Shown here piece by piece: positions 47,400 to 59,165 of a stretch of 64,000 nt of DNA. The notes under the pieces were generated by a model. That model was not told where the DNA came from. It worked only from the letters and a program-made list of their open reading frames with translations, and ran no database searches. This stretch comes from Kiloniellales bacterium (GTDB taxonomy: Bacteria > Pseudomonadota > Alphaproteobacteria > Kiloniellales > JAKSDN01), in NCBI GenBank assembly GCA_041617155.1, contig JBFJPL010000007.1, forward strand, positions 107 to 64,106. Direction: 5' to 3'. The first letter of the stretch is position 1; every line of letters begins with the position of its first letter. The translations under genes and the position numbers were made by a program.

Positions 47400-47768
47400 A
47401 TGCCCAAGTCGGTGCTGATCGTCGACGACGAACCCAATATCGTGCTGTCGCTCGAAGTCTTGATGAAGCGGGCGGGATTCGAGGTTCGGGTGGCGCGGGA
47501 CGGCGAGGCTGCGCTCCAAGCGCTCAAGGCCGAGATCCCCGACCTGGTGTTGCTCGACGTGATGATGCCCAAGCGCGATGGCTACGATGTTTGCCAGATG
47601 ATACGCAGCAACGACGCCTGGAAGGACGTCCGGATCATCATGTTGACCGCCAGGGGCCGCGAGGTCGAGCGCGAAAAGGGCATAGCGCTCGGCGCCGACG
47701 ACTACGTTACAAAGCCCTTTTCGACTCGTGATCTGCTCGAACAGGTGCGTAAGCTGTTTCCCGACTAG
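47400..47768 (+). CDS. Single-domain response regulator (REC only)
   Basis: VDDE, LLDVMMP (phospho-Asp), LTA, KPF; GGAGGAG RBS. Confidence 0.93.
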   Translation: MPKSVLIVDDEPNIVLSLEVLMKRAGFEVRVARDGEAALQALKAEIPDLVLLDVMMPKRDGYDVCQMIRSNDAWKDVRIIMLTARGREVEREKGIALGADDYVTKPFSTRDLLEQVRKLFPD

Positions 47769-47799: not shown

Positions 47800-49914
47800 A
47801 TGTCTCCTCGCCTCCTTTTGATCCTGGCCTTCGGCGCCGTCGGCACGACCGGCGCGCTGGCCATTCTGGTCGCGGTCTGGCTGATCCTGCATGCCGCCGA
47901 AGTCGGATTGGCCGAAGCGGGCTATGCGGCGCTGTTTTTCGGCGGCGCGGCCCTGCTGGCCTTCTGCGGCATCCTGGCCAGCGCCTGGGCAGCGGTCGAG
48001 CTCCGTTTATGGCGCCCCATGATCCGGCTCGCCGCGCGTCTTCATACGGTGGTCCACGCCACCGGGGAGGAAGAGGAGAGCGCGGCGATAGCGGTCGAAA
48101 ACCTTGGCCCCCTGACCGATGCCGTGCGGCAGCTGCTCGGCGAGTTGGCCGACGCACGCCAGGAAAAGGCGCAGGCCATGGCCAGCGCCCGCGAACGCAG
48201 CGAGGAACAGAAAAGCCGGCTAGAGGCGATCCTGCGCGACCTCAGCGAAGGCGTCCTGGTTTGCAACCTCAGCCACCAAATCCTCTTATACAATCAGGCG
48301 GCGTTGCGCATCCTGGAAACCCCCGAGGGACTCGGCCTCGGCCGCTCGCTGTTCCAGATTCTGACCAAGGCGCCGATCCTGCACAGCCTCGAACGGTTGC
48401 AAAGCTGGTTTGCCGACGGTAGACCCGGCGAAGACGGTCGGCACACGGCCGCTTTCGTCGGCACGACGACGGACGCCAGGCTGTTGCTGCACGGCCGCAT
48501 GACTCTGGTGCTGGATCGCGACCGTAATCCGGCCAGCTACGTCCTGGTCCTGACCGAGATCAGCCGCGAGCTGACGGCGCTGAGCGAACGCGACGCCCTG
48601 TTGTACCGGGCGACCGAGGGTCTGCGCGCGCCGCTGGCCAATCTGCGCGCCGCCGCCGAGACGCTCGACGCCAGTCCGGACCTGGAGGACGAAAAGCGTC
48701 AGGCCTTGGAACGGGTCATCCTGAGCGAATCCATCGCCCTAACCGAGAAGCACGAGGGTTTGGCGGAGGAGTATCGCAACTTGGTGGCCGGGCCCTGGTC
48801 GATGGACGATCTCTATGCTCCTGACCTGCTGAACTTCGTGTGCCGGCACGTGAAGGCTAAGGAGGGCTTGAAGGTCACGCTGGTCGGCCGGCCGGTGTGG
48901 CTTCGCGGCGACAGCCACGCCCTGATGCTGGTGCTCGAGTTTCTGATCGGCCACGTCGCGAAACGAGTAGAGGTCGCGGACTTCGATCTGGAAGCCTGGC
49001 ACGGCGACCGCCACTGCTACATAGAACTACGTTGGAAGGGCGAGGCTATTGCCTGGCGCGAGCTCGACGCCTGGCTGGAGAAAACGCTGCCGGGCGGCGT
49101 CGGTACGCGCACGCTGCGCGAGGTGCTGGAACGGCACGGCAGCGAGCCCTGGAGCCGACAGCAGGACGAAGAGGCGGTGCTGCGCATTCCGCTGCCGGCC
49201 GCCCCGCAACCCGACGCCGCCGAGGCCAGCGAGCCGCTGCCGCCGCGCCCGGAGTTCTACGACTTCGATCTGGTGCACCCGCCGCAAGCAGGCGGCGCCC
49301 TGGGCCAGCTGCCGTTGTCCGATCTGGCTTACGTGGTGTTCGACACCGAGACCACGGGCCTGCAGCCCTCCGCGGGCGACGAGATGGTCTCGATTGCCGG
49401 GGTGCGGGTCGTCAACCGGCGGATTCTTACTGGCGAAACCTTCGAGCGCCTGATCAATCCGCGTCGTCGCATCCCCGAAGCCTCGACCCGGTTTCACGGC
49501 ATCACCGACGACATGGTGAAGGACGCGCCGCCGGCACAGGTGGTTCTGCCGCAGTTCAAGAGCTTCGTCGCCGATTCGGTCCTGGTTGCCCACAACGCGG
49601 CTTTCGACATGAAGTTCCTGTACCTCAAGGAAGCGGAATGCGGCCTCTCTTTTGACAATCCCGTACTTGACACGCTGCTGTTGTCGGTCTGGCTGCACCC
49701 CGAGGAGCAGCACCACTCGCTGGACGCCATTGCCCAGCGCTTGGGGGTCGAAGTCGTCGGGCGCCACACCGCGATTGGCGACACCATGGTGACCGCCGCC
49801 GTCTTTCTGCGCATGCTGCGGTTGCTCGACTCCCGCGGCGTGATTACGCTTCAAGACGCCTTCGACGCCGCCGCGGAGATGGTCGAGCTCAGGCGCGCGC
49901 AGGCGTCGTTCTGA
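47800..49914 (+). CDS. Membrane-anchored PAS/pseudo-histidine-kinase fused to a DEDDh 3'-5' exonuclease
   Basis: 2 TM, PAS (LSEGVLVCN...LYNQAA), degenerate DHp (TEGLRAPLANLRAAAE), Exo motifs FDTETTG, AHNAAFD, HTAIGD. Confidence 0.85.
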   Translation: MSPRLLLILAFGAVGTTGALAILVAVWLILHAAEVGLAEAGYAALFFGGAALLAFCGILASAWAAVELRLWRPMIRLAARLHTVVHATGEEEESAAIAVENLGPLTDAVRQLLGELADARQEKAQAMASARERSEEQKSRLEAILRDLSEGVLVCNLSHQILLYNQAALRILETPEGLGLGRSLFQILTKAPILHSLERLQSWFADGRPGEDGRHTAAFVGTTTDARLLLHGRMTLVLDRDRNPASYVLVLTEISRELTALSERDALLYRATEGLRAPLANLRAAAETLDASPDLEDEKRQALERVILSESIALTEKHEGLAEEYRNLVAGPWSMDDLYAPDLLNFVCRHVKAKEGLKVTLVGRPVWLRGDSHALMLVLEFLIGHVAKRVEVADFDLEAWHGDRHCYIELRWKGEAIAWRELDAWLEKTLPGGVGTRTLREVLERHGSEPWSRQQDEEAVLRIPLPAAPQPDAAEASEPLPPRPEFYDFDLVHPPQAGGALGQLPLSDLAYVVFDTETTGLQPSAGDEMVSIAGVRVVNRRILTGETFERLINPRRRIPEASTRFHGITDDMVKDAPPAQVVLPQFKSFVADSVLVAHNAAFDMKFLYLKEAECGLSFDNPVLDTLLLSVWLHPEEQHHSLDAIAQRLGVEVVGRHTAIGDTMVTAAVFLRMLRLLDSRGVITLQDAFDAAAEMVELRRAQASF

Positions 49915-49957: not shown

Positions 49958-51418
49958 TCAAAAGACGTCGCCCGTGAAGTCGGCGTACACGCGCTTGCCC
50001 AGGGCATCAATCGCCTTTAAGGAATCGGTCAGAATGTCCTTTTCGCGCGCCGACAGCGCATTGGGGTGGACGTGGTTGCCGACCGGCCGCCTGGCCTTGA
50101 AATCGGCCAGTTGTTGGCGCAAGAGCAGTCCGGTGATGTGGGTCAAGGCGCCGCGCAGATAATCCGCCTCGTCATTGGCCAGGACACCCAGCTCGTGCAG
50201 CGCGGCAATTCGTTCAAGCGTCGAGGTCTTGGCAACGCCCTCGCGCAGCGCCAACAGCCGAAGCGGGGAAACCAGCGGCAGCGTGCCGCTGTGCTTCAAG
50301 TTGATCTTGCCCCTTTGCGCCGCGTCGTCCCTTTCGACCACGAAACGTCCAAACCAGCCGAGCGCTACGGCACCGGCGTGCATCTGCCGCACCAGCTCGC
50401 TCAGGAAGCCGGGGCTTGACTTGGCCATATCGGTGACCTGCCGGCGGAGCTCTTTGGCCATTGGGGTCGCGCCGTAGGTGCCCTGGAAATCGAAGAAGAT
50501 GTCAGCCAGTTGGACCGCGATCGCGCTGCGTTTGCGGCCCCACAGGCGGACCTGAGCGCGCCACTGGCTGCGGGTCTTGCGCCACACGGGGTTGGTTGCC
50601 ATGACATAACCGCGGCATAGGGGAAAGCCAACAGCGTCCAGGTCGCGGGTCAAGCGATCGGCCAGCTCGATGAAGAAACCATCGATCGCCGGATGATCCT
50701 TGTCGGGGTAGTCGTCGAGTATGAAGCCGTTGTCCTGGTCCGGGTAAAGGTAGTTTTCGCCTCGCCCCCCCGAGCCCATGATCAAAAGCGTGAACTCGAC
50801 CGGAGCGGTGCCCCAGCCCGATTCGGCCATGGCGGCCAGGTGGTTGTCCAGCAGGCGGGCGTGGATGTCCCAGTTGATATGGGTCAGGACCGCCTGAATT
50901 TCCGGACCCGGAACCCGGTCATCGAGCAGGCTCGCGGCCAGCTCGACTTGGGCGGCCTTGATCGCCCGGAGGCCGTCGAGGCTGTCGTCTTGGCTGATCA
51001 ATTCGATCTCGCGCAGCAGCGAGTCGCCCGCCACGGCCAGCGCGACCTGCAGCTCGATCATGCCGAGCGGCCGATAGCCGCGGTCGACCACCGGCATGTG
51101 CCGCCAGCCGAATCGGCGCATGCGGGCGATCGCATAGTAGAGGTAGTCGTCGTCAAACACGGCCTTGACCGGCGCCGTCATCACGTCGCCGACCGCCTCG
51201 CTGCCGACACAGCGCAGGGCGATGCGGCGGGTGACATCCTGCTCGGTCACGATCCCGGCTAGCCGGCCGTCGCCATCGACAATCAGAGCACTGGTGCGGC
51301 GCGCGGCGGCCATGGCCTCGAGCAAATCCGAGACGCTGGTCGTAGCCGTGACCACGACCGGCGACCGGCGCATATAGTCGGCGACCAGACGGGAAAAGAT
51401 CTTGGTCCGCGGCTGCAT
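49958..51418 (-). CDS. CBS-CBS-DUF294/DUF294_C putative nucleotidyltransferase
   Basis: CBS pair, MGSGGRGE...PDQDN (GS..DxD NTase motif), CRGYVMATNPVW, IFFD, INLK. Confidence 0.88.
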   Translation of the reverse strand: MQPRTKIFSRLVADYMRRSPVVVTATTSVSDLLEAMAAARRTSALIVDGDGRLAGIVTEQDVTRRIALRCVGSEAVGDVMTAPVKAVFDDDYLYYAIARMRRFGWRHMPVVDRGYRPLGMIELQVALAVAGDSLLREIELISQDDSLDGLRAIKAAQVELAASLLDDRVPGPEIQAVLTHINWDIHARLLDNHLAAMAESGWGTAPVEFTLLIMGSGGRGENYLYPDQDNGFILDDYPDKDHPAIDGFFIELADRLTRDLDAVGFPLCRGYVMATNPVWRKTRSQWRAQVRLWGRKRSAIAVQLADIFFDFQGTYGATPMAKELRRQVTDMAKSSPGFLSELVRQMHAGAVALGWFGRFVVERDDAAQRGKINLKHSGTLPLVSPLRLLALREGVAKTSTLERIAALHELGVLANDEADYLRGALTHITGLLLRQQLADFKARRPVGNHVHPNALSAREKDILTDSLKAIDALGKRVYADFTGDVF

Positions 51419-51432
51419 GGACGCCCGTCGCG

Positions 51433-54189
51433 CTATTCCGCGACCCGGGCGCTCAAGGCTCCGGTGGCCGGAATGGTGAAGGAAAACTTCGCGCCATGAC
51501 CGGGCGCGCTTTCGACCCAGATGCGTCCGCCGAAGAACTCGACGATCTGGCGCGATATCGCCAAGCCTAGCCCGGTGCCGCCGGGCCGATCGGTCAGGGC
51601 CTCGTTGGCCTGTTGGAACTTCTCAAAAATCATCCTGCGCTTTTCCGCCGCCACGCCCGGACCGTTGTCGGCAACGCTGACATAAAGGCCCTCGTCGCGC
51701 GCCGCGGCGGACACGACCACAAGGCCCTGGGTCTGATGGCAGAACTTCACCGCGTTGGACAACAGGTTGAGAATGACCTGCATCAAACGGTCGCGGTCGA
51801 CGAGGACCTTCGGCAGGCGTTCGTCGAGTTTGAGCTCGAGCTTGATCGCGCGCTCGGCGAACAGACTGCCGGTCGCCGCCAAGGCCTCCCTGATCACGCC
51901 TTCGGGGTCAACCTCCTCCATCCGCCAGTCCATGCGGCCGGCTTCCATTTTCGCCAGGTCCAGGATCTGGTTGATCAGGCGTGTCAGGCGCTCGCTCTCC
52001 TTGACGATGACGGTCAGGAACCGTTGCCGTTCGGCCATTTCGATCTCCGGATTGTCGAACAGGATCTCGCTGAAGGAGCGGATCGAGGTCAGCGGCGTGC
52101 GCAGCTCGTGGCTGACGGTGGAAAGGAAATCATCCTTCAGGCGGTCCAGCTCCTTGAGCCGCTCGTTGGCGGCGCGCAGTTGGGCGGTGGTCGCTTCCAG
52201 CTCGCGCGACTTCTGTTCCAGGCCATGGCTGTATTCGATCACCTGCGAGGTTTCCTCCAATATTTCCATGACCTCGTCGATGCCCAACATCTCGCCCTTG
52301 GCGACCGACGCCACCATGACCCGCGCGGAAGCCGCGCCGATCGCGCCGGCCAGAAGCCGCTCGGCGAAGTTCACCAGATCGGCATCGGCCTCGGGCAGCT
52401 TGGCCAGGTTGAGGCCCCGCGCGCGGGCATAGCCGCCGAGCGCCCGTTCGGCGCGATCGCGTCCGACAAATCGCACGAGCAGCGCACGCAGATCCGAGAC
52501 CGTGGCCGAGCCGCGCCAGAAACGCGACCCACCGCCCGGGACGCCGGAATGCTTGAACACGTCCACGAACAGCGCGCCCTGGATTCGATCGATCGCGCTC
52601 TGCCGGCCGCCCAGGGAAAAGCCGATGAATCCGCCGATGTTGGCCAGCATGCTCCAAAACATGGCGTGGGTCAGACTGTCCATGCCGCGGAGCCCGAATA
52701 GCGCCTGCGGTTTGAGCAGCTCGATTGCGAGCGGCCCGGACTCGATAAAGCTGATAGGCAGCCAGCCCGAGCGCGCGAACGACGGCAAAAGCAAGGTATA
52801 GGCCCAGATGGCAAACCCCATGCCGAGCCCGGCCAGGGCGCCGCCGCGTGTGCCGCCCTTCCAAAAAATCCCGCCGATGATGGCCGGCGCGAACTGGGCG
52901 GCGGCGGCGAATGACACCAGGCCGATCGTGACCAAGGCGTCGGACTCGCCGGCCAGGCGGAAATAGCCATAGCCCAACAGCAGAATGATCACGATGCTGC
53001 CGCGACGAATCAGCAGCAGCAAACCGGTCAGGTCGCCACGCTCGGTCAGCCTGAGCCAACTGAGCCGCAGCAGTCCCGGCATGACCAGGTCGTTGCTGAC
53101 CATGGTGCTCAGGGCGATCGCGGCGACAATCACCATACCGGTCGCCGCCGACAGCCCGCCGATGAAGACGAACAGCGCCAGAAGCTCCTGCTGTTCGGCC
53201 ATCGGCAGGGTCAGCACGAAGGTGTCGGCGTCGACCACGCCCTTTGGAAAGGCCAGCAGACCGCCGATGGCGATCGGCAGGACGAAGACGTTGATCGCGA
53301 GCAGATAGAGCGGGAAAAGCCAGACCGCCTTGTGCAAGTGCGCCTCGTCCACGTTCTCGACCACGGTCATGTGAAATTGGCGGGGTAGGCAGATGATCGC
53401 CGCCATGGACAGGAACGTCAGGGTCATCCATTGGCCATAGCTGCTGCCGCCGCTCAGGGTCAACAGCTTGACGATTTCCGGCTCCGCGCGCGCCGCCGCG
53501 AAAAGGTCGCCGAACCCGTTGTAGAGGCCAAAGGTCACGAAGATGCCGACGGCCAGGAAGGCCGCCAGCTTGACCACCGATTCGAAGGCGATGGCGGCGA
53601 CCATGCCCTCGTGGTGTTCGCTGGCATCGATATGGCGGGTGCCGAACAGGATGGCGAAAGCGGCCATCACCAGCGCGATCAGAAATGCGGTGTCGGCCAG
53701 GACCGGGACATGCTCGGAGACGGGCGGCGTGGCCACCTCGGGATACTGCAGCAGGACCTTGAAGCTGGTCGATACCGCTTTTAGCTGCAGTGAGATGTAG
53801 GGCATGATGCCGACCACCGCGATGACAGTTACCAGAACGCTTAGGCCCGTACTCTTGCCGTAGCGCGAGGAGATGAAGTCGGCGATCGAGGTGATACGGT
53901 GCGCCTTGCTGATGCGAATGATCTTTCGCAGCACGAACCACCAGACCACGAAGGTCAATGTTGGCCCGAGGTAGATCGGCAGAAAGTCGATGCCGCTCGA
54001 CGCCGCGCGTCCGACGCTGCCGTAGAAGGTCCAGGAGGTGCAATAGACGGCAATCGACAGGGTATAGATGTAGGGATTGGCGACCAGGCTTTGGCCGGCA
54101 TCGGCGCGCTTGTCCACGCTGTAGGCGATCGCGAACAGCAGGCAGAGGTAGGCCAGCGAGGTCAGCAGTATGGCCCAGCCGCTCAGCAT
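51433..54189 (-). CDS. CrbS-like sodium:solute symporter-STAC-histidine kinase (no PAS, no REC)
   Basis: SSS domain (VYCTSWTFYGSVG, SIADFISSRYGKS, LPRQFH), STAC (LAGAIGAASARVM), H-box SHELRTPLT, N/G boxes (NLLSNAVKF, DNGPG, GTGLGL). Confidence 0.92.
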   Translation of the reverse strand: MLSGWAILLTSLAYLCLLFAIAYSVDKRADAGQSLVANPYIYTLSIAVYCTSWTFYGSVGRAASSGIDFLPIYLGPTLTFVVWWFVLRKIIRISKAHRITSIADFISSRYGKSTGLSVLVTVIAVVGIMPYISLQLKAVSTSFKVLLQYPEVATPPVSEHVPVLADTAFLIALVMAAFAILFGTRHIDASEHHEGMVAAIAFESVVKLAAFLAVGIFVTFGLYNGFGDLFAAARAEPEIVKLLTLSGGSSYGQWMTLTFLSMAAIICLPRQFHMTVVENVDEAHLHKAVWLFPLYLLAINVFVLPIAIGGLLAFPKGVVDADTFVLTLPMAEQQELLALFVFIGGLSAATGMVIVAAIALSTMVSNDLVMPGLLRLSWLRLTERGDLTGLLLLIRRGSIVIILLLGYGYFRLAGESDALVTIGLVSFAAAAQFAPAIIGGIFWKGGTRGGALAGLGMGFAIWAYTLLLPSFARSGWLPISFIESGPLAIELLKPQALFGLRGMDSLTHAMFWSMLANIGGFIGFSLGGRQSAIDRIQGALFVDVFKHSGVPGGGSRFWRGSATVSDLRALLVRFVGRDRAERALGGYARARGLNLAKLPEADADLVNFAERLLAGAIGAASARVMVASVAKGEMLGIDEVMEILEETSQVIEYSHGLEQKSRELEATTAQLRAANERLKELDRLKDDFLSTVSHELRTPLTSIRSFSEILFDNPEIEMAERQRFLTVIVKESERLTRLINQILDLAKMEAGRMDWRMEEVDPEGVIREALAATGSLFAERAIKLELKLDERLPKVLVDRDRLMQVILNLLSNAVKFCHQTQGLVVVSAAARDEGLYVSVADNGPGVAAEKRRMIFEKFQQANEALTDRPGGTGLGLAISRQIVEFFGGRIWVESAPGHGAKFSFTIPATGALSARVAE

Positions 54190-54191
54190 GT

Positions 54192-54446
54192 TCAGCGGTT
54201 CCCGCGCGGCGGTTCGGGCGCCGGGGGCTCGCCGCTCTGGTCCGGTGACCGGGCCGCGGCGACCGCCTGTACCGCGACCAGGGCAATGATGCCGGCCCAG
54301 GCGCAGAACAGATAGACGTAGAGCAGCGGCACGCCGAACAGGAAGACCTCGGCGCTGAAGATCGACAGGAGCGGTGGGTTGAAGGCGAGAAACGCCACGA
54401 TGAACAGCGCGAACGCACGCTCTCCCACCAAACCGGGCCGGTTCAT
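54192..54446 (-). CDS. Small two-TM membrane protein (DUF3311-like SSS partner)
   Basis: FNPPLL...LFGVPLLYVYLFCAW; GGGAGG RBS; directly upstream of the SSS-kinase. Confidence 0.75.
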   Translation of the reverse strand: MNRPGLVGERAFALFIVAFLAFNPPLLSIFSAEVFLFGVPLLYVYLFCAWAGIIALVAVQAVAAARSPDQSGEPPAPEPPRGNR

Positions 54447-54515
54447 GCCATGCCTCCCGTCTGCCGAACCGCCATCATCGCGCACGATCGCCCGGACGGC
54501 AAAGCAGCCGTTTTT

Positions 54516-54893
54516 TCACTGCTCCTCGGCGCCCAGCAACTGGCGCGCCCGCGCGACGATCTCGCGGGTCGAGAAGGGCTTGGTCATATAGTCGTCGGCG
54601 CCCAGTTCCATCCCCTTGTGCCGGTCCAGCGCCCGCCCCTTCGCGGTCAGCATCATGATCTTGACGTCGCTCCACGCCGGGTTCTCGCGGATCTCGCGAC
54701 AAACGTCGTAGCCGTCGCGCCGGGGTAGCATTACGTCGAGCAGGACCAGATCGGGGACCCGGCTTTTCATGACTCTTATGGCCGCGTCTCCGTCGCGGGC
54801 GATCTGCACCAAAAAGCCCGCCTGCTTCATCAGGAAGCTGAGTGAATCGACGATGTTCGCCTCGTCTTCCACGACCAGAACTGAAAAGGCCAT
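54516..54893 (-). CDS. Single-domain response regulator (REC only), paralog of 47400..47768
   Basis: VEDE, LLDVMLP, LTAKG, KPFSTR. Confidence 0.93.
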   Translation of the reverse strand: MAFSVLVVEDEANIVDSLSFLMKQAGFLVQIARDGDAAIRVMKSRVPDLVLLDVMLPRRDGYDVCREIRENPAWSDVKIMMLTAKGRALDRHKGMELGADDYMTKPFSTREIVARARQLLGAEEQ

Positions 54894-54951
54894 ATCGGCA
54901 CCCCTTCCGCGGCTAATACCAAAGGTCATTGATCATGACCTTTGGTATTAA

Positions 54952-56514
54952 TCACCGTACGAGCGACGGGTAGGCCCGCTGCCGGCAATCATGCCGTTCA
55001 CAGAGCCGGCAATGCAGCCCGACAGGCATGGCGATTTTGGCATCGTCAAATGCCAGGCCGTCGGCGTAGACCAGCTTTCGGGCGAACGACACCTCGCAGC
55101 CGATGCAGATCGCATAGTGACTGTCCGGCGCGCCAAAACCGTCGCCCGGCTTGGCGATATGCCTGGCGATATTGAGATAGGTCGTACCATCGGGCAGTCG
55201 GGCAATCTGCCGGTCAATCCGCCCCGGGTTCATGAAGGTCGCATGCACGTTCCAGCGCGGGCAGGCCCCGCCGTAGCGCGGAATCCGCAAGCCGGAGCCG
55301 TTGAACCGCTTGGAGATATTGCCGGCGATATCGACCCGCATGAAGTGGAACGGCACGCCTTCGTCACCCGGTCGCTGCAAGGTGGTCAAGCGGTGGCAGA
55401 CCTGCTCGAAACTGGTCCCGAAACTCTGCGCTAACAGATCGATGTCGTGGCGTAGCTCTTCGGCAGCTGAGCGGAACGGCCGGTAAGGCATCAGCACGGC
55501 ACCGGCGAAGTAGCCCGCAAGCATCCGGCGGTACATCTTTCGGGCGCCGGGTGTCGAGAGCACTGCCTGCTCCATATGCCGTTCGATCAGCCCCGGCATC
55601 GAGATCAGCGCGACCTGCTGAGCAACCTGGAAAGCCACGCTCCCGGCTGGCAAGTTTTTCGAAACTCGCAGGCCGCGCTGCCCGGCATCGAACTCGTCAG
55701 CGCGCGCCGCACCATTGTCGCCGGCCCCGAACGTGACCGTCAGGCCGCAATGCTCGGCGAGCGCGGTCCACAGGGCCTCCGGCGTGTCCGAGCTCGTGGC
55801 ACCGATCTCCTGTCGAGCCCGCTCGGCGGCCACCTCGAACTCGGGAAAGTGGTTGTTGGCCCGGTGCACTGCATCGATGACTTCATCGCTCGGCGAGTCC
55901 GTGCCCCGCAGGCCACGCAAGCCGTCGCCGGTGATGAAATCGAACAGCTGGTTGACCAATTCGGTCAACTTTTCGCTTTCCTTCACCAGCACGCCGACGA
56001 ACTGCCTACGCCGGTCCGCGGCCAGATCGACGTTGTCGTGCAGAATCTCGGCAAAAGACCGGATCGAGGTCAGCAGAGTCAGGAGCTGATGGCTCGATTC
56101 GGAAAGATAGGGATCCTGGGCGAGATGCTCGCTCAGGCCACGGATATCCTCGCTCACATTCCGATAGCTCCGGTAGAGCGTCAAGATCGCCCGACACACG
56201 GCCGGCGCGGCCCCGACCAGTTCGTTCAACTCACTGTGCCTAAGCTTCAAATCGCCGAACAGCGGGTCGCTGAAGAGTTCCGTGATGTCGGCCAGCAGCC
56301 GCGCCTCCTCGTTGCCCGAGAAGGACTTGAGGTCGACCTGGAAGCGCTCCGACAGCTTCAGCAGAAGCGGCCGGTTGAGAGCCCGCTGGTTGTGCTCGAT
56401 CAGATTGAGATAACTCGGCGATATCCCCAGTTGCGTCGCCATGGCAACCTGGGTCAGCCCATGCTCGTTGCGCAAGCGGCGCACCTTATTGCCCAGCATC
56501 GCCTGCCGCGGCAT
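54952..56514 (-). CDS. ScfR/RamB/PrpR-family XRE transcriptional regulator with internal DHp-like insert
   Basis: XRE HTH (LGISPSYLNLIEHNQR), YFAGAVLMP, SFEQVCHRLTTLQRPG, RVDIAGNISKR, ACPRW, C-terminal CRLCERHDC. Confidence 0.9.
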   Translation of the reverse strand: MPRQAMLGNKVRRLRNEHGLTQVAMATQLGISPSYLNLIEHNQRALNRPLLLKLSERFQVDLKSFSGNEEARLLADITELFSDPLFGDLKLRHSELNELVGAAPAVCRAILTLYRSYRNVSEDIRGLSEHLAQDPYLSESSHQLLTLLTSIRSFAEILHDNVDLAADRRRQFVGVLVKESEKLTELVNQLFDFITGDGLRGLRGTDSPSDEVIDAVHRANNHFPEFEVAAERARQEIGATSSDTPEALWTALAEHCGLTVTFGAGDNGAARADEFDAGQRGLRVSKNLPAGSVAFQVAQQVALISMPGLIERHMEQAVLSTPGARKMYRRMLAGYFAGAVLMPYRPFRSAAEELRHDIDLLAQSFGTSFEQVCHRLTTLQRPGDEGVPFHFMRVDIAGNISKRFNGSGLRIPRYGGACPRWNVHATFMNPGRIDRQIARLPDGTTYLNIARHIAKPGDGFGAPDSHYAICIGCEVSFARKLVYADGLAFDDAKIAMPVGLHCRLCERHDCRQRAYPSLVR

Positions 56515-56535
56515 CGTTCGCCTCCCTAGGCAGTA

Positions 56536-56583
56536 TTTACTTGTTTACATGTTCTCGAATTTCGCTGTCGCAATATTTACAAA
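56536..56583. promoter_or_regulatory. 8-bp-phased TTTAC(A)-type repeats, candidate ScfR operator
   Basis: TTTACTTG, TTTACATG and TTTACAAA at 56536, 56544 and 56576 between the divergent regulator and transporter. Confidence 0.5.
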
Positions 56584-56625
56584 TTTCGTCCGATGGAACA
56601 ATGCGATATTGACCGGCACCGAAGA

Positions 56626-56641
56626 TTAACGAATAGTTAAC
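56626..56641. promoter_or_regulatory. Full CtrA-box match TTAA-N7-TTAAC
   Basis: TTAAcgaatagTTAAC upstream of the SSS transporter. Confidence 0.55.
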
Positions 56642-56771
56642 CTTAGGAGCTATGTAAGCCCTTGAAATTTATGTCGGCGCCCACTTGGACGCGCCGACGG
56701 GTCGAATCCGGTCCCGAGCCGTCAAGACCATCAAGAACAGGGTCGGGCCTACACGAAGGGGGACATCACCT

Positions 56772-58760
56772 ATGGAAGCCAAAGTTGTCTGGCTCTTTGT
56801 CTTCGTCGCGCTCTATTGGGCCTATTGCATCTTCTGGGGCATCAAGTCGGCGATGACGGCGAAGACCGCCTCTGATTACTTCATCGCCGGACGGCGTCTG
56901 TCGATCTGGGTCTTCATCCTGGCGGCGACGGCCACGTCGTTTTCCGGCTGGACCTTCATGGGCCATCCGGGCCTCGTCTACCGCGACGGGTTCCAATACG
57001 CCTATGCGTCGTTCTACACCATCACCATTCCCTTCACCGGCGTGATGTTCCTGAAGCGCCAGTGGATGCTGGGCAAGCGCTACGGCTACGTGACGCCGGG
57101 CGAGATGCTGGCGGACTACTTCCGGGGCGATGCGATCCGCATCCTGGTCGTGCTGGTGGCGTTGTTGTTCTCGATCCCGTATCTCGGCGTGCAGCTGGGC
57201 GCCTCGGGCTTCCTGTTCAACGTGCTGACCGACGGCCTGATTCACGAGGAAGTGGGCATGTGGGTGCTGTCGCTGGTGGTGCTGATCTATGTCGCCTCGG
57301 GCGGTCTTCGGGCGGTGGCCTACGTGGACACTGTGCAGTGCATCCTGCTGGCGGTCGGCATTATGATCACGGGCGTCATCGCGCTCGATCTGGTCGGCGG
57401 CTGGGGCGCCCTGAACGAGGGCTTCGCGGCGATCGGCCGCTCGAACCTGGGCAAGTGGGGCGTCACGGAAGATGGCTACAACGCCTATCTCGCGATTCCC
57501 GGCGTGATCCAGTTCACCGCGGGCCTGGGCAAGGAAACCCCGGTCGGCGGCTTGTGGACCGGCGTCATGTGTCTGACCTACATGTTCGCGCTCATGGGCA
57601 TCCAATCGGCGCCGGCCTTCTCGATGTGGGCGTTCGGCAACCAGAGCCCGAAGCCCTTCGCGCCGCAACAGGTCTGGGCCTCGTCGTTCTGCATCGGCTT
57701 TATCCTGTTCTTCTTCACCGCCTTCCAGGGCATGGGCGCCCATCTGTTGGGCGGCAACCCGGCCTTTAACGAAGCCGGGCTGGTGATCAACGAGGTACTG
57801 AACGGCCAGGAGATCGCAGGCAAGCCGGACTCGCTGGTGCCGCGCTACTTCAACCAGATCGCCGACTCCCTGCCGTGGCTGGTCGGCCTGTTGGCGGTTT
57901 GTGCCCTCGCGGCCATGCAGTCGACCGGCGCGGCCTACATGTCCACGGCCGGCGGCATGCTGACCCGCGACCTCTATAAGCGCTATCTGAATCCGACGGC
58001 CAGCCACACGACCCAAAAACTGTTCGGGCGTGCCGGCGTCGCCTTCATCGTGCTGTCGGCGCTCTTGGTCGCGACCTTCTCGAAGGATGCGCTTGTTCTG
58101 CTGGGCGGTTTGGCGGTCGCCTTCGGCTTCCAGATGTGGCCGGCTCTGGCGGCGATCTGCTGGTTTCCCTGGATCACCCGTCAGGGCGCGACCTGGGGTC
58201 TGGCGGCCGGCCTGATCGGGGTGATCTTCACCGAGACCTTCGGTCAGCAAATCGCTGGCGTGCTCGGTATCGACCTGCCTTGGGGCCGCTGGCCCTGGAC
58301 CATCCATTCGGCCGGCTGGGGCATAATCCTCAACCTCGCCGTTTGCATCCCGGTTTCGTACCTCACCCAGAACTCGGGGGATCTGGCTCACCGCATGAAG
58401 TATCATAACTTCCTGCGCGAGCATGCCAGCCTGTCGCCCAGCAAGCGCGGACTGGTCCCGATCGCCTGGGGTGTGACCCTGGCCTGGATGTTCTTCGGCA
58501 TCGGCCCGGGCGCGGTGATCGGCAACGACATCTTCGGCGCGCCGAACGCGGGCGTCGAGGGCTGGACCTTCGGCATTCCGTCGATCTGGGCCTGGCAGAT
58601 CCTGTTCTGGCTGCTGGGAACCGCGATGATGTGGTTCCTGGCCTACAAGATGGAGATGTCGACCGTGCCCGATAAGGAGGTCGAGGCTCTGGTCGAGGAT
58701 ATCGGCGACGTCGTTCAGACCCCGGCCGCCCAGGCCGGAGCCGGCGGCGCGGGTCGATAA
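56772..58760 (+). CDS. Sodium:solute symporter (SSS) family transporter with C-terminal extra membrane domain
   Basis: DYFIAGR, TSFSGWTFMGHPG, GGLRAVAYVD, ALAAMQST, LTRDLY; multi-TM; GAAGGGGG RBS. Confidence 0.92.
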   Translation: MEAKVVWLFVFVALYWAYCIFWGIKSAMTAKTASDYFIAGRRLSIWVFILAATATSFSGWTFMGHPGLVYRDGFQYAYASFYTITIPFTGVMFLKRQWMLGKRYGYVTPGEMLADYFRGDAIRILVVLVALLFSIPYLGVQLGASGFLFNVLTDGLIHEEVGMWVLSLVVLIYVASGGLRAVAYVDTVQCILLAVGIMITGVIALDLVGGWGALNEGFAAIGRSNLGKWGVTEDGYNAYLAIPGVIQFTAGLGKETPVGGLWTGVMCLTYMFALMGIQSAPAFSMWAFGNQSPKPFAPQQVWASSFCIGFILFFFTAFQGMGAHLLGGNPAFNEAGLVINEVLNGQEIAGKPDSLVPRYFNQIADSLPWLVGLLAVCALAAMQSTGAAYMSTAGGMLTRDLYKRYLNPTASHTTQKLFGRAGVAFIVLSALLVATFSKDALVLLGGLAVAFGFQMWPALAAICWFPWITRQGATWGLAAGLIGVIFTETFGQQIAGVLGIDLPWGRWPWTIHSAGWGIILNLAVCIPVSYLTQNSGDLAHRMKYHNFLREHASLSPSKRGLVPIAWGVTLAWMFFGIGPGAVIGNDIFGAPNAGVEGWTFGIPSIWAWQILFWLLGTAMMWFLAYKMEMSTVPDKEVEALVEDIGDVVQTPAAQAGAGGAGR

Positions 58761-58824: not shown

Positions 58825-58925
58825 CGTGGCGCGTTTCTTTTCGTGGCGCGCGGCGGCTTTGTCACGCCGGCTGCGGCTGCTAAAATCGCGCCCTCGTCAT
58901 CGGAGGCGTGCGGGAATTCGAGAAG

Positions 58926-59165
58926 ATGGAAGCTTTCTTCGCCAGGGACTACCTGTGGCTTTGGACGCTGGTCCTGACCGCCGCCCTGTTCCTCCCGGTG
59001 CGGCAACTGATCTGGGTGATCTACATGCGCCGGGCTCAACGCCAGGCTACGATCGAGGAAGCTGAAGGCCAGCGCCTTAAAAAGCGGGCGACGGTCACGG
59101 CCGTCTTGATCTGCTTCGTATTCTCGGTGCTCTACACCCAGTACCTGTTTCAGGGGCAGCCATGA
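58926..59165 (+). CDS. Small two-TM hypothetical membrane protein
   Basis: Two hydrophobic segments; ATGA overlap with the next gene. Confidence 0.7.
   Translation: MEAFFARDYLWLWTLVLTAALFLPVRQLIWVIYMRRAQRQATIEEAEGQRLKKRATVTAVLICFVFSVLYTQYLFQGQP

Follow-up and report, generated by a model that had tools for sequence, protein, structure and literature searches.

The 64,000-nucleotide stretch analysed here (the window; positions 107 to 64,106 of contig JBFJPL010000007.1, assembly GCA_041617155.1, from a Kiloniellales bacterium) encodes an ScfR-family transcription factor that carries within its fold the dimerisation and histidine-phosphotransfer (DHp) hairpin of a histidine kinase family, one member of which is encoded a short distance downstream. 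The domain lies inside the ScfR architecture as an insertion, originates from the kinase's own family, is conserved throughout a clade of regulators linked to two-component genes, and shares with the kinase the surface at which a receiver is predicted to dock. As a rule, the output of a two-component system is a receiver domain fused to an effector, and single-domain receivers act by binding partners, few of which are known. In the present case a clade of one-component regulators that sense CoA compounds and Fe-S (iron-sulfur) status appears to have joined a kinase pathway as its client, having taken over from that kinase the hairpin on which receivers dock. This suggests a link, not described before, between a two-component pathway and a transcription factor that senses metabolites. 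We think it more probable than not that REC1, the single-domain receiver encoded next to the regulator, binds to the regulator's DHp, and that the kinase-REC1 pathway has the regulator as its transcriptional output. The features that enter this argument first are the following.

54952-56514, minus strand: ScfR-family regulator, 520 aa, with an XRE helix-turn-helix (HTH), a DII helix, the inserted DHp, an IrrE/M78-like domain and ScfRs with Fe-S cysteines
56329-56484, minus strand: HTH_3 DNA-binding domain of the regulator, residues 11-62 (PF01381, 43.9 bits)
55897-56124, minus strand: inserted DHp (HisKA) hairpin of the regulator, residues ~131-206 (PF00512), not in PrpR; the His142 codon is at 56089-56091
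54516-54929, minus strand: REC1, single-domain response regulator of 137 aa whose gene follows the regulator gene after 23 bp (PF00072, 99.5 bits), with no output domain
51433-54189, minus strand: membrane histidine kinase, 918 aa, with a polytopic N-terminal part of ~650 aa, HisKA at residues 685-751, HATPase_c at 798-909 and no receiver domain
51937-52137, minus strand: DHp of the kinase, residues 685-751, homologue of the regulator's insert

By its domain content the regulator is a member of the ScfR family. Its C-terminal half matches Peptidase_M78 at residues 254-377 (PF06114, 57.2 bits) and ScfRs at residues 378-518 (PF09856, 195.7 bits) in Pfam, and residues 207-518 align to the core of the solved M. 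tuberculosis PrpR with an E value of 7e-78. Four cysteines, C418, C502, C505 and C510, are invariant in 115 sequences of the regulator family and fit the ScfR motif C-x2-C-x4-C plus a fourth cysteine, the Fe-S motif described for PrpR (PMC6765138, in excerpt). RamB proper is ruled out, as the NCBIfam equivalog NF038139 gives 401 bits against a cut-off of 700 and covers residues 206-518 only. With PrpR (6cyj/6cyy/6cz6), RamB, PccR and MccR the regulator shares the XRE HTH, DII, the IrrE/M78-like domain, ScfRs and the Fe-S cysteines; unlike them, it holds a kinase DHp of 76 residues and is linked to two-component genes rather than to methylcitrate or glyoxylate genes. Residues 64-130 align to PrpR DII, so that 76 residues of the regulator stand where PrpR has 13, and the DHp segment is therefore a genuine insert. 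This is the comparison that the first-pass annotation of this DNA had proposed for recognising an insertion. The AlphaFold2 model of the regulator (mean pLDDT, predicted local distance difference test, 83.4) has a long helix at 104-132 that runs into the hairpin, whose predicted DHp helices span 135-160 and 166-195 at a regional pLDDT of 86-90. Ordinary ScfR paralogues from related genomes and plasmids align with the regulator no earlier than about residue 205, or else are only some 456-460 codons long. Pfam finds no HATPase_c in the regulator at E values up to 1, the M78-like domain following the DHp instead, and since it has no ATPase domain the regulator is not a kinase.

The inserted segment scores as a kinase domain in its own right and matches the neighbouring kinase more closely than any other kinase of its genome. 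PF00512 is found at residues 141-193 with 34.2 bits, above the gathering cut-off of 26.9 (E 2.6e-8), and the search of solved structures that returned PrpR also matched residues 135-226 to chains of the kinase HK853 (E 1.9e-4). The alternative that the first-pass annotation had set against its own proposal, a stretch of ordinary ScfR core lacking any HisKA score, is contradicted both by the PF00512 match and by the missing counterpart in PrpR. The ungapped similarity that it had counted by hand as 32 identities in 58 positions is borne out by BLASTP, which aligns regulator residues 133-193 with kinase residues 685-745 without gaps (33/61 identical, E 2e-16); the hairpins of the two DHps have the same length. 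As had also been noted, His142 aligns with the kinase histidine, the following position (H+1) is Gln in the regulator and Glu in the kinase, and Thr stands at H+4 in both. The exact 15-nucleotide match reported earlier, CGGATCGAGGTCAGC, has just two copies in the window (52079 and 56060), against an expectation of 0 from 100 shuffles; it encodes an LTSIR motif common to both proteins, and is shared because that conserved motif is written in GC-rich codons. Among the DHps of the same genome, the neighbouring kinase matches the insert with 68 bits, far ahead of all other true kinases (at most 35 bits). Outside the window, a 169-aa frame on the minus strand (C16:2338-2844), mostly a DHp-like sequence lacking the histidine, is the second-best match to the insert in that genome (42%, 42.7 bits), and a 168-aa frame in genome G340 resembles it.

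The insert is old and has been under selection. PF00512 is carried by 115 of the 120 best database homologues of the regulator (46-100% identical), and the insert is present at all 49 loci that we compared, namely the window and 48 further related loci, with regulator identity falling to 33%. It is conserved to about the same degree as the remaining domains (majority fraction 0.64, the others ranging from 0.56 to 0.78), and no change at E156, I157 or L158 occurs among 115 sequences. In a FastTree phylogeny the regulator DHps form one clade (48 of 48, support 0.97) nested among the DHps of the kinase family. Of the 26 other kinase DHps in the window's genome, 23 branch apart from this group (support 0.997-0.999), the deep order of the tree being weak because it rests on only about 61 positions. 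When the insert was searched against five other genomes, the orthologous regulator and a kinase frame of 900-1060 aa came out on top in each, and everything else stayed at or below 26 bits. We read this as one old capture of this kinase family's DHp, inherited ever since. The description of the segment as a near-copy of its neighbour accordingly had to be given up: the two DHp segments are only about 60% identical in DNA, and across 39 pairs the regulator DHp is barely closer to its own kinase (mean identity 0.436) than to the kinases of other genomes (0.415), which, with the single old clade, rules out a recent duplication of, or gene conversion from, the neighbouring kinase. The accompanying guess that similar inserts may be common among related ScfR proteins proved right, since they define a large conserved clade.

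What the insert has kept best is the face on which a receiver would sit. REC1 retains the phospho-acceptor set (D22, D65, T95 and K117 are invariant in 40 sequences), and its helix 1 is highly conserved. In Pfam, REC1 and the locus's second receiver, REC2, are without an output domain, and the kinase lacks a receiver domain of its own. A complex model of a dimer of regulator residues 120-205 with REC1 scores 0.68, a mark reached by 58 of 80 solved complexes and by 2 of 110 mismatched pairs, whereas the best of three controls scores 0.00; the runs share at least 95% of their contacts, with partner pLDDT of at least 81. The modelled contacts have the canonical kinase-regulator geometry, with helix 1 and the beta5-alpha5 loop of REC1 packed on DHp helix 1 below His142 and the REC1 active-site region (residues 67 and 96-97) against regulator residues 141-142. 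At the predicted contact positions the regulator is identical to its own kinase in 18 of 19 cases, compared with 15 of 42 at other DHp positions, and the other kinases of the genome share 4-10 of the 19. The same holds across 38 regulator/kinase pairs, in which identity averages 0.69 at contacts and 0.32 elsewhere and is higher at the interface in 37. Conservation within the regulator family likewise favours the contact positions, at 0.83, over the other DHp positions, at 0.56 (one-sided Mann-Whitney p 4e-5). As judged from these alignments, the insert appears to have kept the receiver-docking face that it shares with the kinase.

Gene neighbourhood links the regulator first to a receiver and then to a kinase. 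At 42 of the 48 loci other than the window (41 of 47 without the unpublished locus L117) the next gene downstream on the regulator's strand encodes a single-domain receiver, across a gap of 8-567 bp, and the kinase gene lies downstream of the regulator at 36 of all 49. At seven loci the pair of regulator and receiver persists with no such kinase directly following it: six show none in the fetched stretch, and at L025 the kinase lies about 6 kb away on the opposite strand. Among 401 alphaproteobacterial genomes drawn evenly across the class, a search with a profile of residues 100-206 found the regulator type (model positions 3 or lower to 98 or higher, in frames of 428-614 aa) in 42 by hand count. 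The kinase type, judged at class level by DHp score and frame length only, is found in all 42 of these, and in 36 it is no more than 11 kb away on the regulator's contig; the search also returned three ambiguous fragments and ten genomes with kinase-type matches only. These distributions, together with the contact comparison and the model, support the first-pass proposal of a common docking surface and a coupling to receivers, for which phospho-acceptor, phosphatase and REC~P sensor are candidate modes; a recent origin from this particular neighbour is the part that did not stand. At L004-L010 and L088 the receiver gene lies about 500-570 bp from the regulator, compared with less than 300 bp at most other loci, and the gap could hold a small extra gene.

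The regulator gene is separated from a divergent transporter gene by an intergenic region with operator-like sequences.

56515-56684: regulator/transporter intergenic region, with two operator-like TGTAAA boxes on the regulator strand (TTTACA on the plus strand at 56544-56549 and 56576-56581)
56685-58760, plus strand: transporter of the sodium:solute symporter family, 691 aa (PF00474, 111 bits), divergent from the regulator

At least two forward TGTAAA boxes occur within 230 nucleotides upstream of the regulator at 27 of 48 related loci, against an expectation of 0.025 per 230 nucleotides, and paired upstream operator boxes are usual for ScfRs (PMC10370305, in excerpt). The boxes are the sites that the regulator is likely to bind, and the symporter, which is divergent from the regulator at 21 of 49 loci, is likely to be a target gene. 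Further upstream of the boxes, a conserved GGTCAATAA-like motif was seen by eye at many related loci.

We hypothesize that an ancestor of this ScfR clade took up the DHp hairpin of the kinase family once, placing it between the DII helix and the ligand-binding core. The pathway would then run from the membrane kinase through REC1 to the regulator as its DNA-binding output: the kinase would phosphorylate REC1, and REC1, in the same canonical geometry, could also dock on the regulator because the insert kept the kinase's docking face. Docking would alter the action of the regulator at the TGTAAA boxes of its own operon and of the divergent transporter, either with phosphorylated REC1 (REC1~P) as an allosteric ligand or through phosphoryl transfer to His142, and the regulator would merge a membrane or transport signal with the acyl-CoA and Fe-S sensing of the ScfR core.

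Several points weigh against this proposal. The adjacent receiver gene is absent at six of the 48 loci (L081, L084, L085, L086, L094 and L108), and ten of the 49 show no such kinase within the fetched stretch. Linkage counts of this kind overstate the support because related genomes are not independent, and operon gene order alone could account for part of the receiver adjacency. The success of the complex model may reflect likeness rather than this particular pair, since similar complexes, such as HK853 with its regulator, have been solved, and for its controls unrelated proteins were used rather than non-cognate receivers. The positions behind the 18 of 19 identities come from a model fed the same alignments and include positions generally conserved in HisKA domains. 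By eye, positions of the regulator DHp and of REC1 helix 1 do not clearly covary in pairs, both being too conserved to yield such a signal. A signal of genome-specific co-adaptation is likewise missing, because the regulator DHp's own kinase is no measurably closer match to it than the kinases of other genomes are. The binding of REC1, the route taken by the phosphoryl group, the consequence for DNA binding and the identity of the target genes are inferred from sequences and models.

Among the competing explanations, one carries the chemistry further and brings in additional genes of the locus.

47400-47768, plus strand: REC2, another single-domain receiver (122 aa; identity to REC1 63%)
47800-49914, plus strand: membrane/PAS protein with a C-terminal DEDDh exonuclease (RNase_T, 139 bits; PAS; weak HisKA)
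49958-51418, minus strand: CBS and DUF294 nucleotidyltransferase-like protein (Pfam), in the conserved cassette by synteny

A terminal His-Asp-His relay is conceivable, if rather doubtful in our judgement, in which REC1~P passes its phosphoryl group to His142 in the manner of Spo0F to Spo0B or MrrA to PhyK, and the phosphohistidine either acts as the switch or is passed on to REC2. The modelled placement of the REC1 active-site region opposite residues 141-142 and the presence of a second, closely similar receiver in the locus would suit such a relay, as would the conservation of the acceptor: across 120 homologues the position of His142 holds His in 117, Tyr in 2 and Gln in 1, with Thr at H+4 in 102, and at the compared loci His is kept in 43 of 49. 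The alphaproteobacterial single-domain receiver MrrA also provides a precedent, both for the main proposal and for this relay, since it passes phosphate to the DHp protein PhyK (PMC5964349, in excerpt). Tyr nevertheless replaces His at the remaining six loci (L005, L006, L009, L010, L085 and L094), four of which retain the receiver and the kinase downstream, so that the signalling system can exist without a phosphorylatable histidine. Position H+1 is not kept acidic either (E67/Q27/R25/K1 among the 120 homologues), and the exchange of Glu for Gln to which the first-pass annotation gave weight is simply one state of this variable position. We know of no transcription factor controlled by phosphorylation of a DHp histidine; were phosphoryl flow to end on His142, the regulator would be one switched in this way.

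A larger version of the same idea, which we rate somewhat lower still, would have a single kinase feed two near-identical receivers, each encoded beside an effector with a captured DHp 'socket'. The exonuclease protein, whose gene has the REC2 gene directly upstream, contains at residues ~264-315 (48589-48744) a degenerate DHp-like stretch that is identical to the kinase DHp at 19 of 52 positions (E 2e-6) and has Glu at the His position; this stretch and REC2 make it a second effector in the locus with a kinase-derived hairpin and its own receiver. The sockets would then be a transcription factor with His and a PAS-exonuclease protein with Glu, the phosphoryl group would end on His142, and DHp capture would be a general route by which outside proteins become two-component clients.

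It is improbable, in our view, that the insert instead pairs directly with the kinase, through a mixed four-helix bundle or phosphorylation in trans by the kinase's ATPase domain, so that the regulator is tethered to the membrane or set free from it and REC1 is unneeded. Membership of the same DHp family, equal hairpin length, 33/61 identity and the strict co-occurrence of regulator and kinase (42 of 42 in the class sample) are what such pairing would predict; the identity, however, is focused on receiver-facing positions (18/19 against 15/42, bundle-core positions not being scored separately), and the receiver stays beside the regulator even at the seven loci without a nearby kinase.

Equally improbable to us is a reversal of the pathway in which the regulator serves as an input, its DHp dephosphorylating REC1~P (and REC2~P), or serving as a sink for their phosphate, under acyl-CoA control and so setting the level read by, for example, the exonuclease protein. 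In HisKA kinases Thr at H+4 supports phosphatase activity, and an acidic residue at H+1 is part of the phosphatase motif. The regulator family has the former in 102 of 120 members, whereas the latter position is variable; the toleration of His-to-Tyr lineages would also fit a phosphatase. The kinase-receiver-exonuclease-DUF294 cassette exists without the regulator on plasmid 1 of P. denitrificans and in about 10 of the 401 genomes, which makes the regulator an add-on to the cassette. Its HTH is nonetheless intact and the best conserved of its domains (0.78), and the operator-like boxes upstream are conserved, from which it follows that the regulator surely acts on DNA.

Least probable of all, we consider, is that the insert is a mere dimerisation or spacer module for oligomerisation within a two-component neighbourhood of no mechanistic meaning: DHp domains are dimerisation modules, PrpR is tetrameric with a disordered DII (PMC6765138, in excerpt) and six of 48 loci lack the adjacent receiver, but such a module would have no reason to keep the His (117/120), the H+4 Thr and exactly those receiver-facing residues that mark one kinase family when elsewhere in the hairpin identity has fallen to 32-36%, and the occurrence of the regulator type only in genomes with that kinase type would be left unexplained.

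With REC1 docking on the regulator as the preferred account, the regulator most resembles DivL or PhyK/Spo0B, but with the DHp placed inside a transcription factor. DivL carries Tyr at the His position, as do the regulators of the six Tyr loci. As with DivL and DivK in Caulobacter (reviewed in PMC12471899, in excerpt), the DHp is probably not autophosphorylating and, according to the model and the gene linkage, would be read by a single-domain receiver. DivL, however, keeps a kinase-like body and controls another kinase, whereas the DHp described here sits in a DNA-binding, ligand-sensing transcription factor without an ATPase domain, and most members of its family keep the His. Spo0B and ChpT are non-kinase DHp proteins with a His that receive phosphate from a single-domain receiver. 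PhyK, partnered by the single-domain receiver MrrA, is a further non-kinase DHp protein with a His (PMC5964349, in excerpt), and the likeness extends to the regulator insofar as transfer to His142, which is putative, takes place. All three hand phosphate to a final response regulator and are without a DNA-binding domain, whereas the regulator would be DHp carrier and transcription factor in one.

We found no published description of an ScfR-DHp fusion in the literature searched, the supplementary network of the Pden_1785 paper lying outside that search. Closest in print is one sentence in that paper stating that the ScfR-like Pden_1785 of Paracoccus denitrificans clusters with two-component genes, a point that its authors did not pursue; Pden_1785 is a candidate carrier of the insert. 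In a plasmid collection no named cultivable carrier of the insert was confirmed, the matches there being kinases and short ScfRs of the ordinary kind. If the proposal is true, it would establish a signalling architecture that is new, running from kinase to free receiver to DHp-bearing transcription factor, and would show metabolic and membrane or transport signals merging on one promoter. It would also supply a rule for finding the partners of orphan single-domain receivers, which is to look for DHp fragments outside kinases, and the regulator family, present in 42 of 401 sampled alphaproteobacterial genomes, is widespread.

The remaining features concern the input side and the conserved cassette around the kinase.

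54192-54485, minus strand: small membrane open reading frame (ORF) of 97 aa that separates the REC1 and kinase genes; its conservation at related loci was seen by tblastn
58908-59165, plus strand: small membrane ORF of 85 aa following the transporter gene, likewise conserved at related loci (tblastn)

Neither of these ORFs matched a Pfam or NCBIfam family. Residues 1-650 of the kinase (52240-54189) match no Pfam family at E values up to 10, with SSF, STAC and PAS undetected; they show a weak likeness to the neighbouring SSS transporter (E 0.006), and the corresponding atlas clusters carry SSF in 14-18% of their members. This part of the kinase may be a very divergent transporter-like sensor domain. 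Assignment as an SSS sensor kinase of the CbrA/CrbS type failed the Pfam SSF (PF00474) test and is left as a weak lead. The system resembles CrbS/CrbR (MxtR/ErdR) and CbrA/CbrB in its large polytopic membrane kinase and its short-chain acid themes, and it too has a CBS and exonuclease gene pair beside the kinase; in P. putida, MxtR/ErdR controls pp_0354, encoding a CBS protein, and pp_0353, encoding an RNase_T exonuclease (PMC9927547, in excerpt). Unlike CrbS and CbrA, the kinase here has no detected SSF, STAC or PAS and no receiver domain, and unlike those systems the locus is without a LuxR- or NtrC-type regulator, its output being a single-domain receiver and DHp-bearing effectors. The cassette on P. 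denitrificans PD1222 plasmid 1 (L120, 624884-631784) comprises DUF294, an 81-aa ORF, a 901-aa kinase, a 121-aa receiver and a 706-aa exonuclease protein and has no ScfR regulator, so the kinase/receiver/exonuclease module is separable from the regulator branch; this arrangement and the gene pair under MxtR/ErdR control in P. putida suggest a conserved module to which the regulator-REC1 branch was added.

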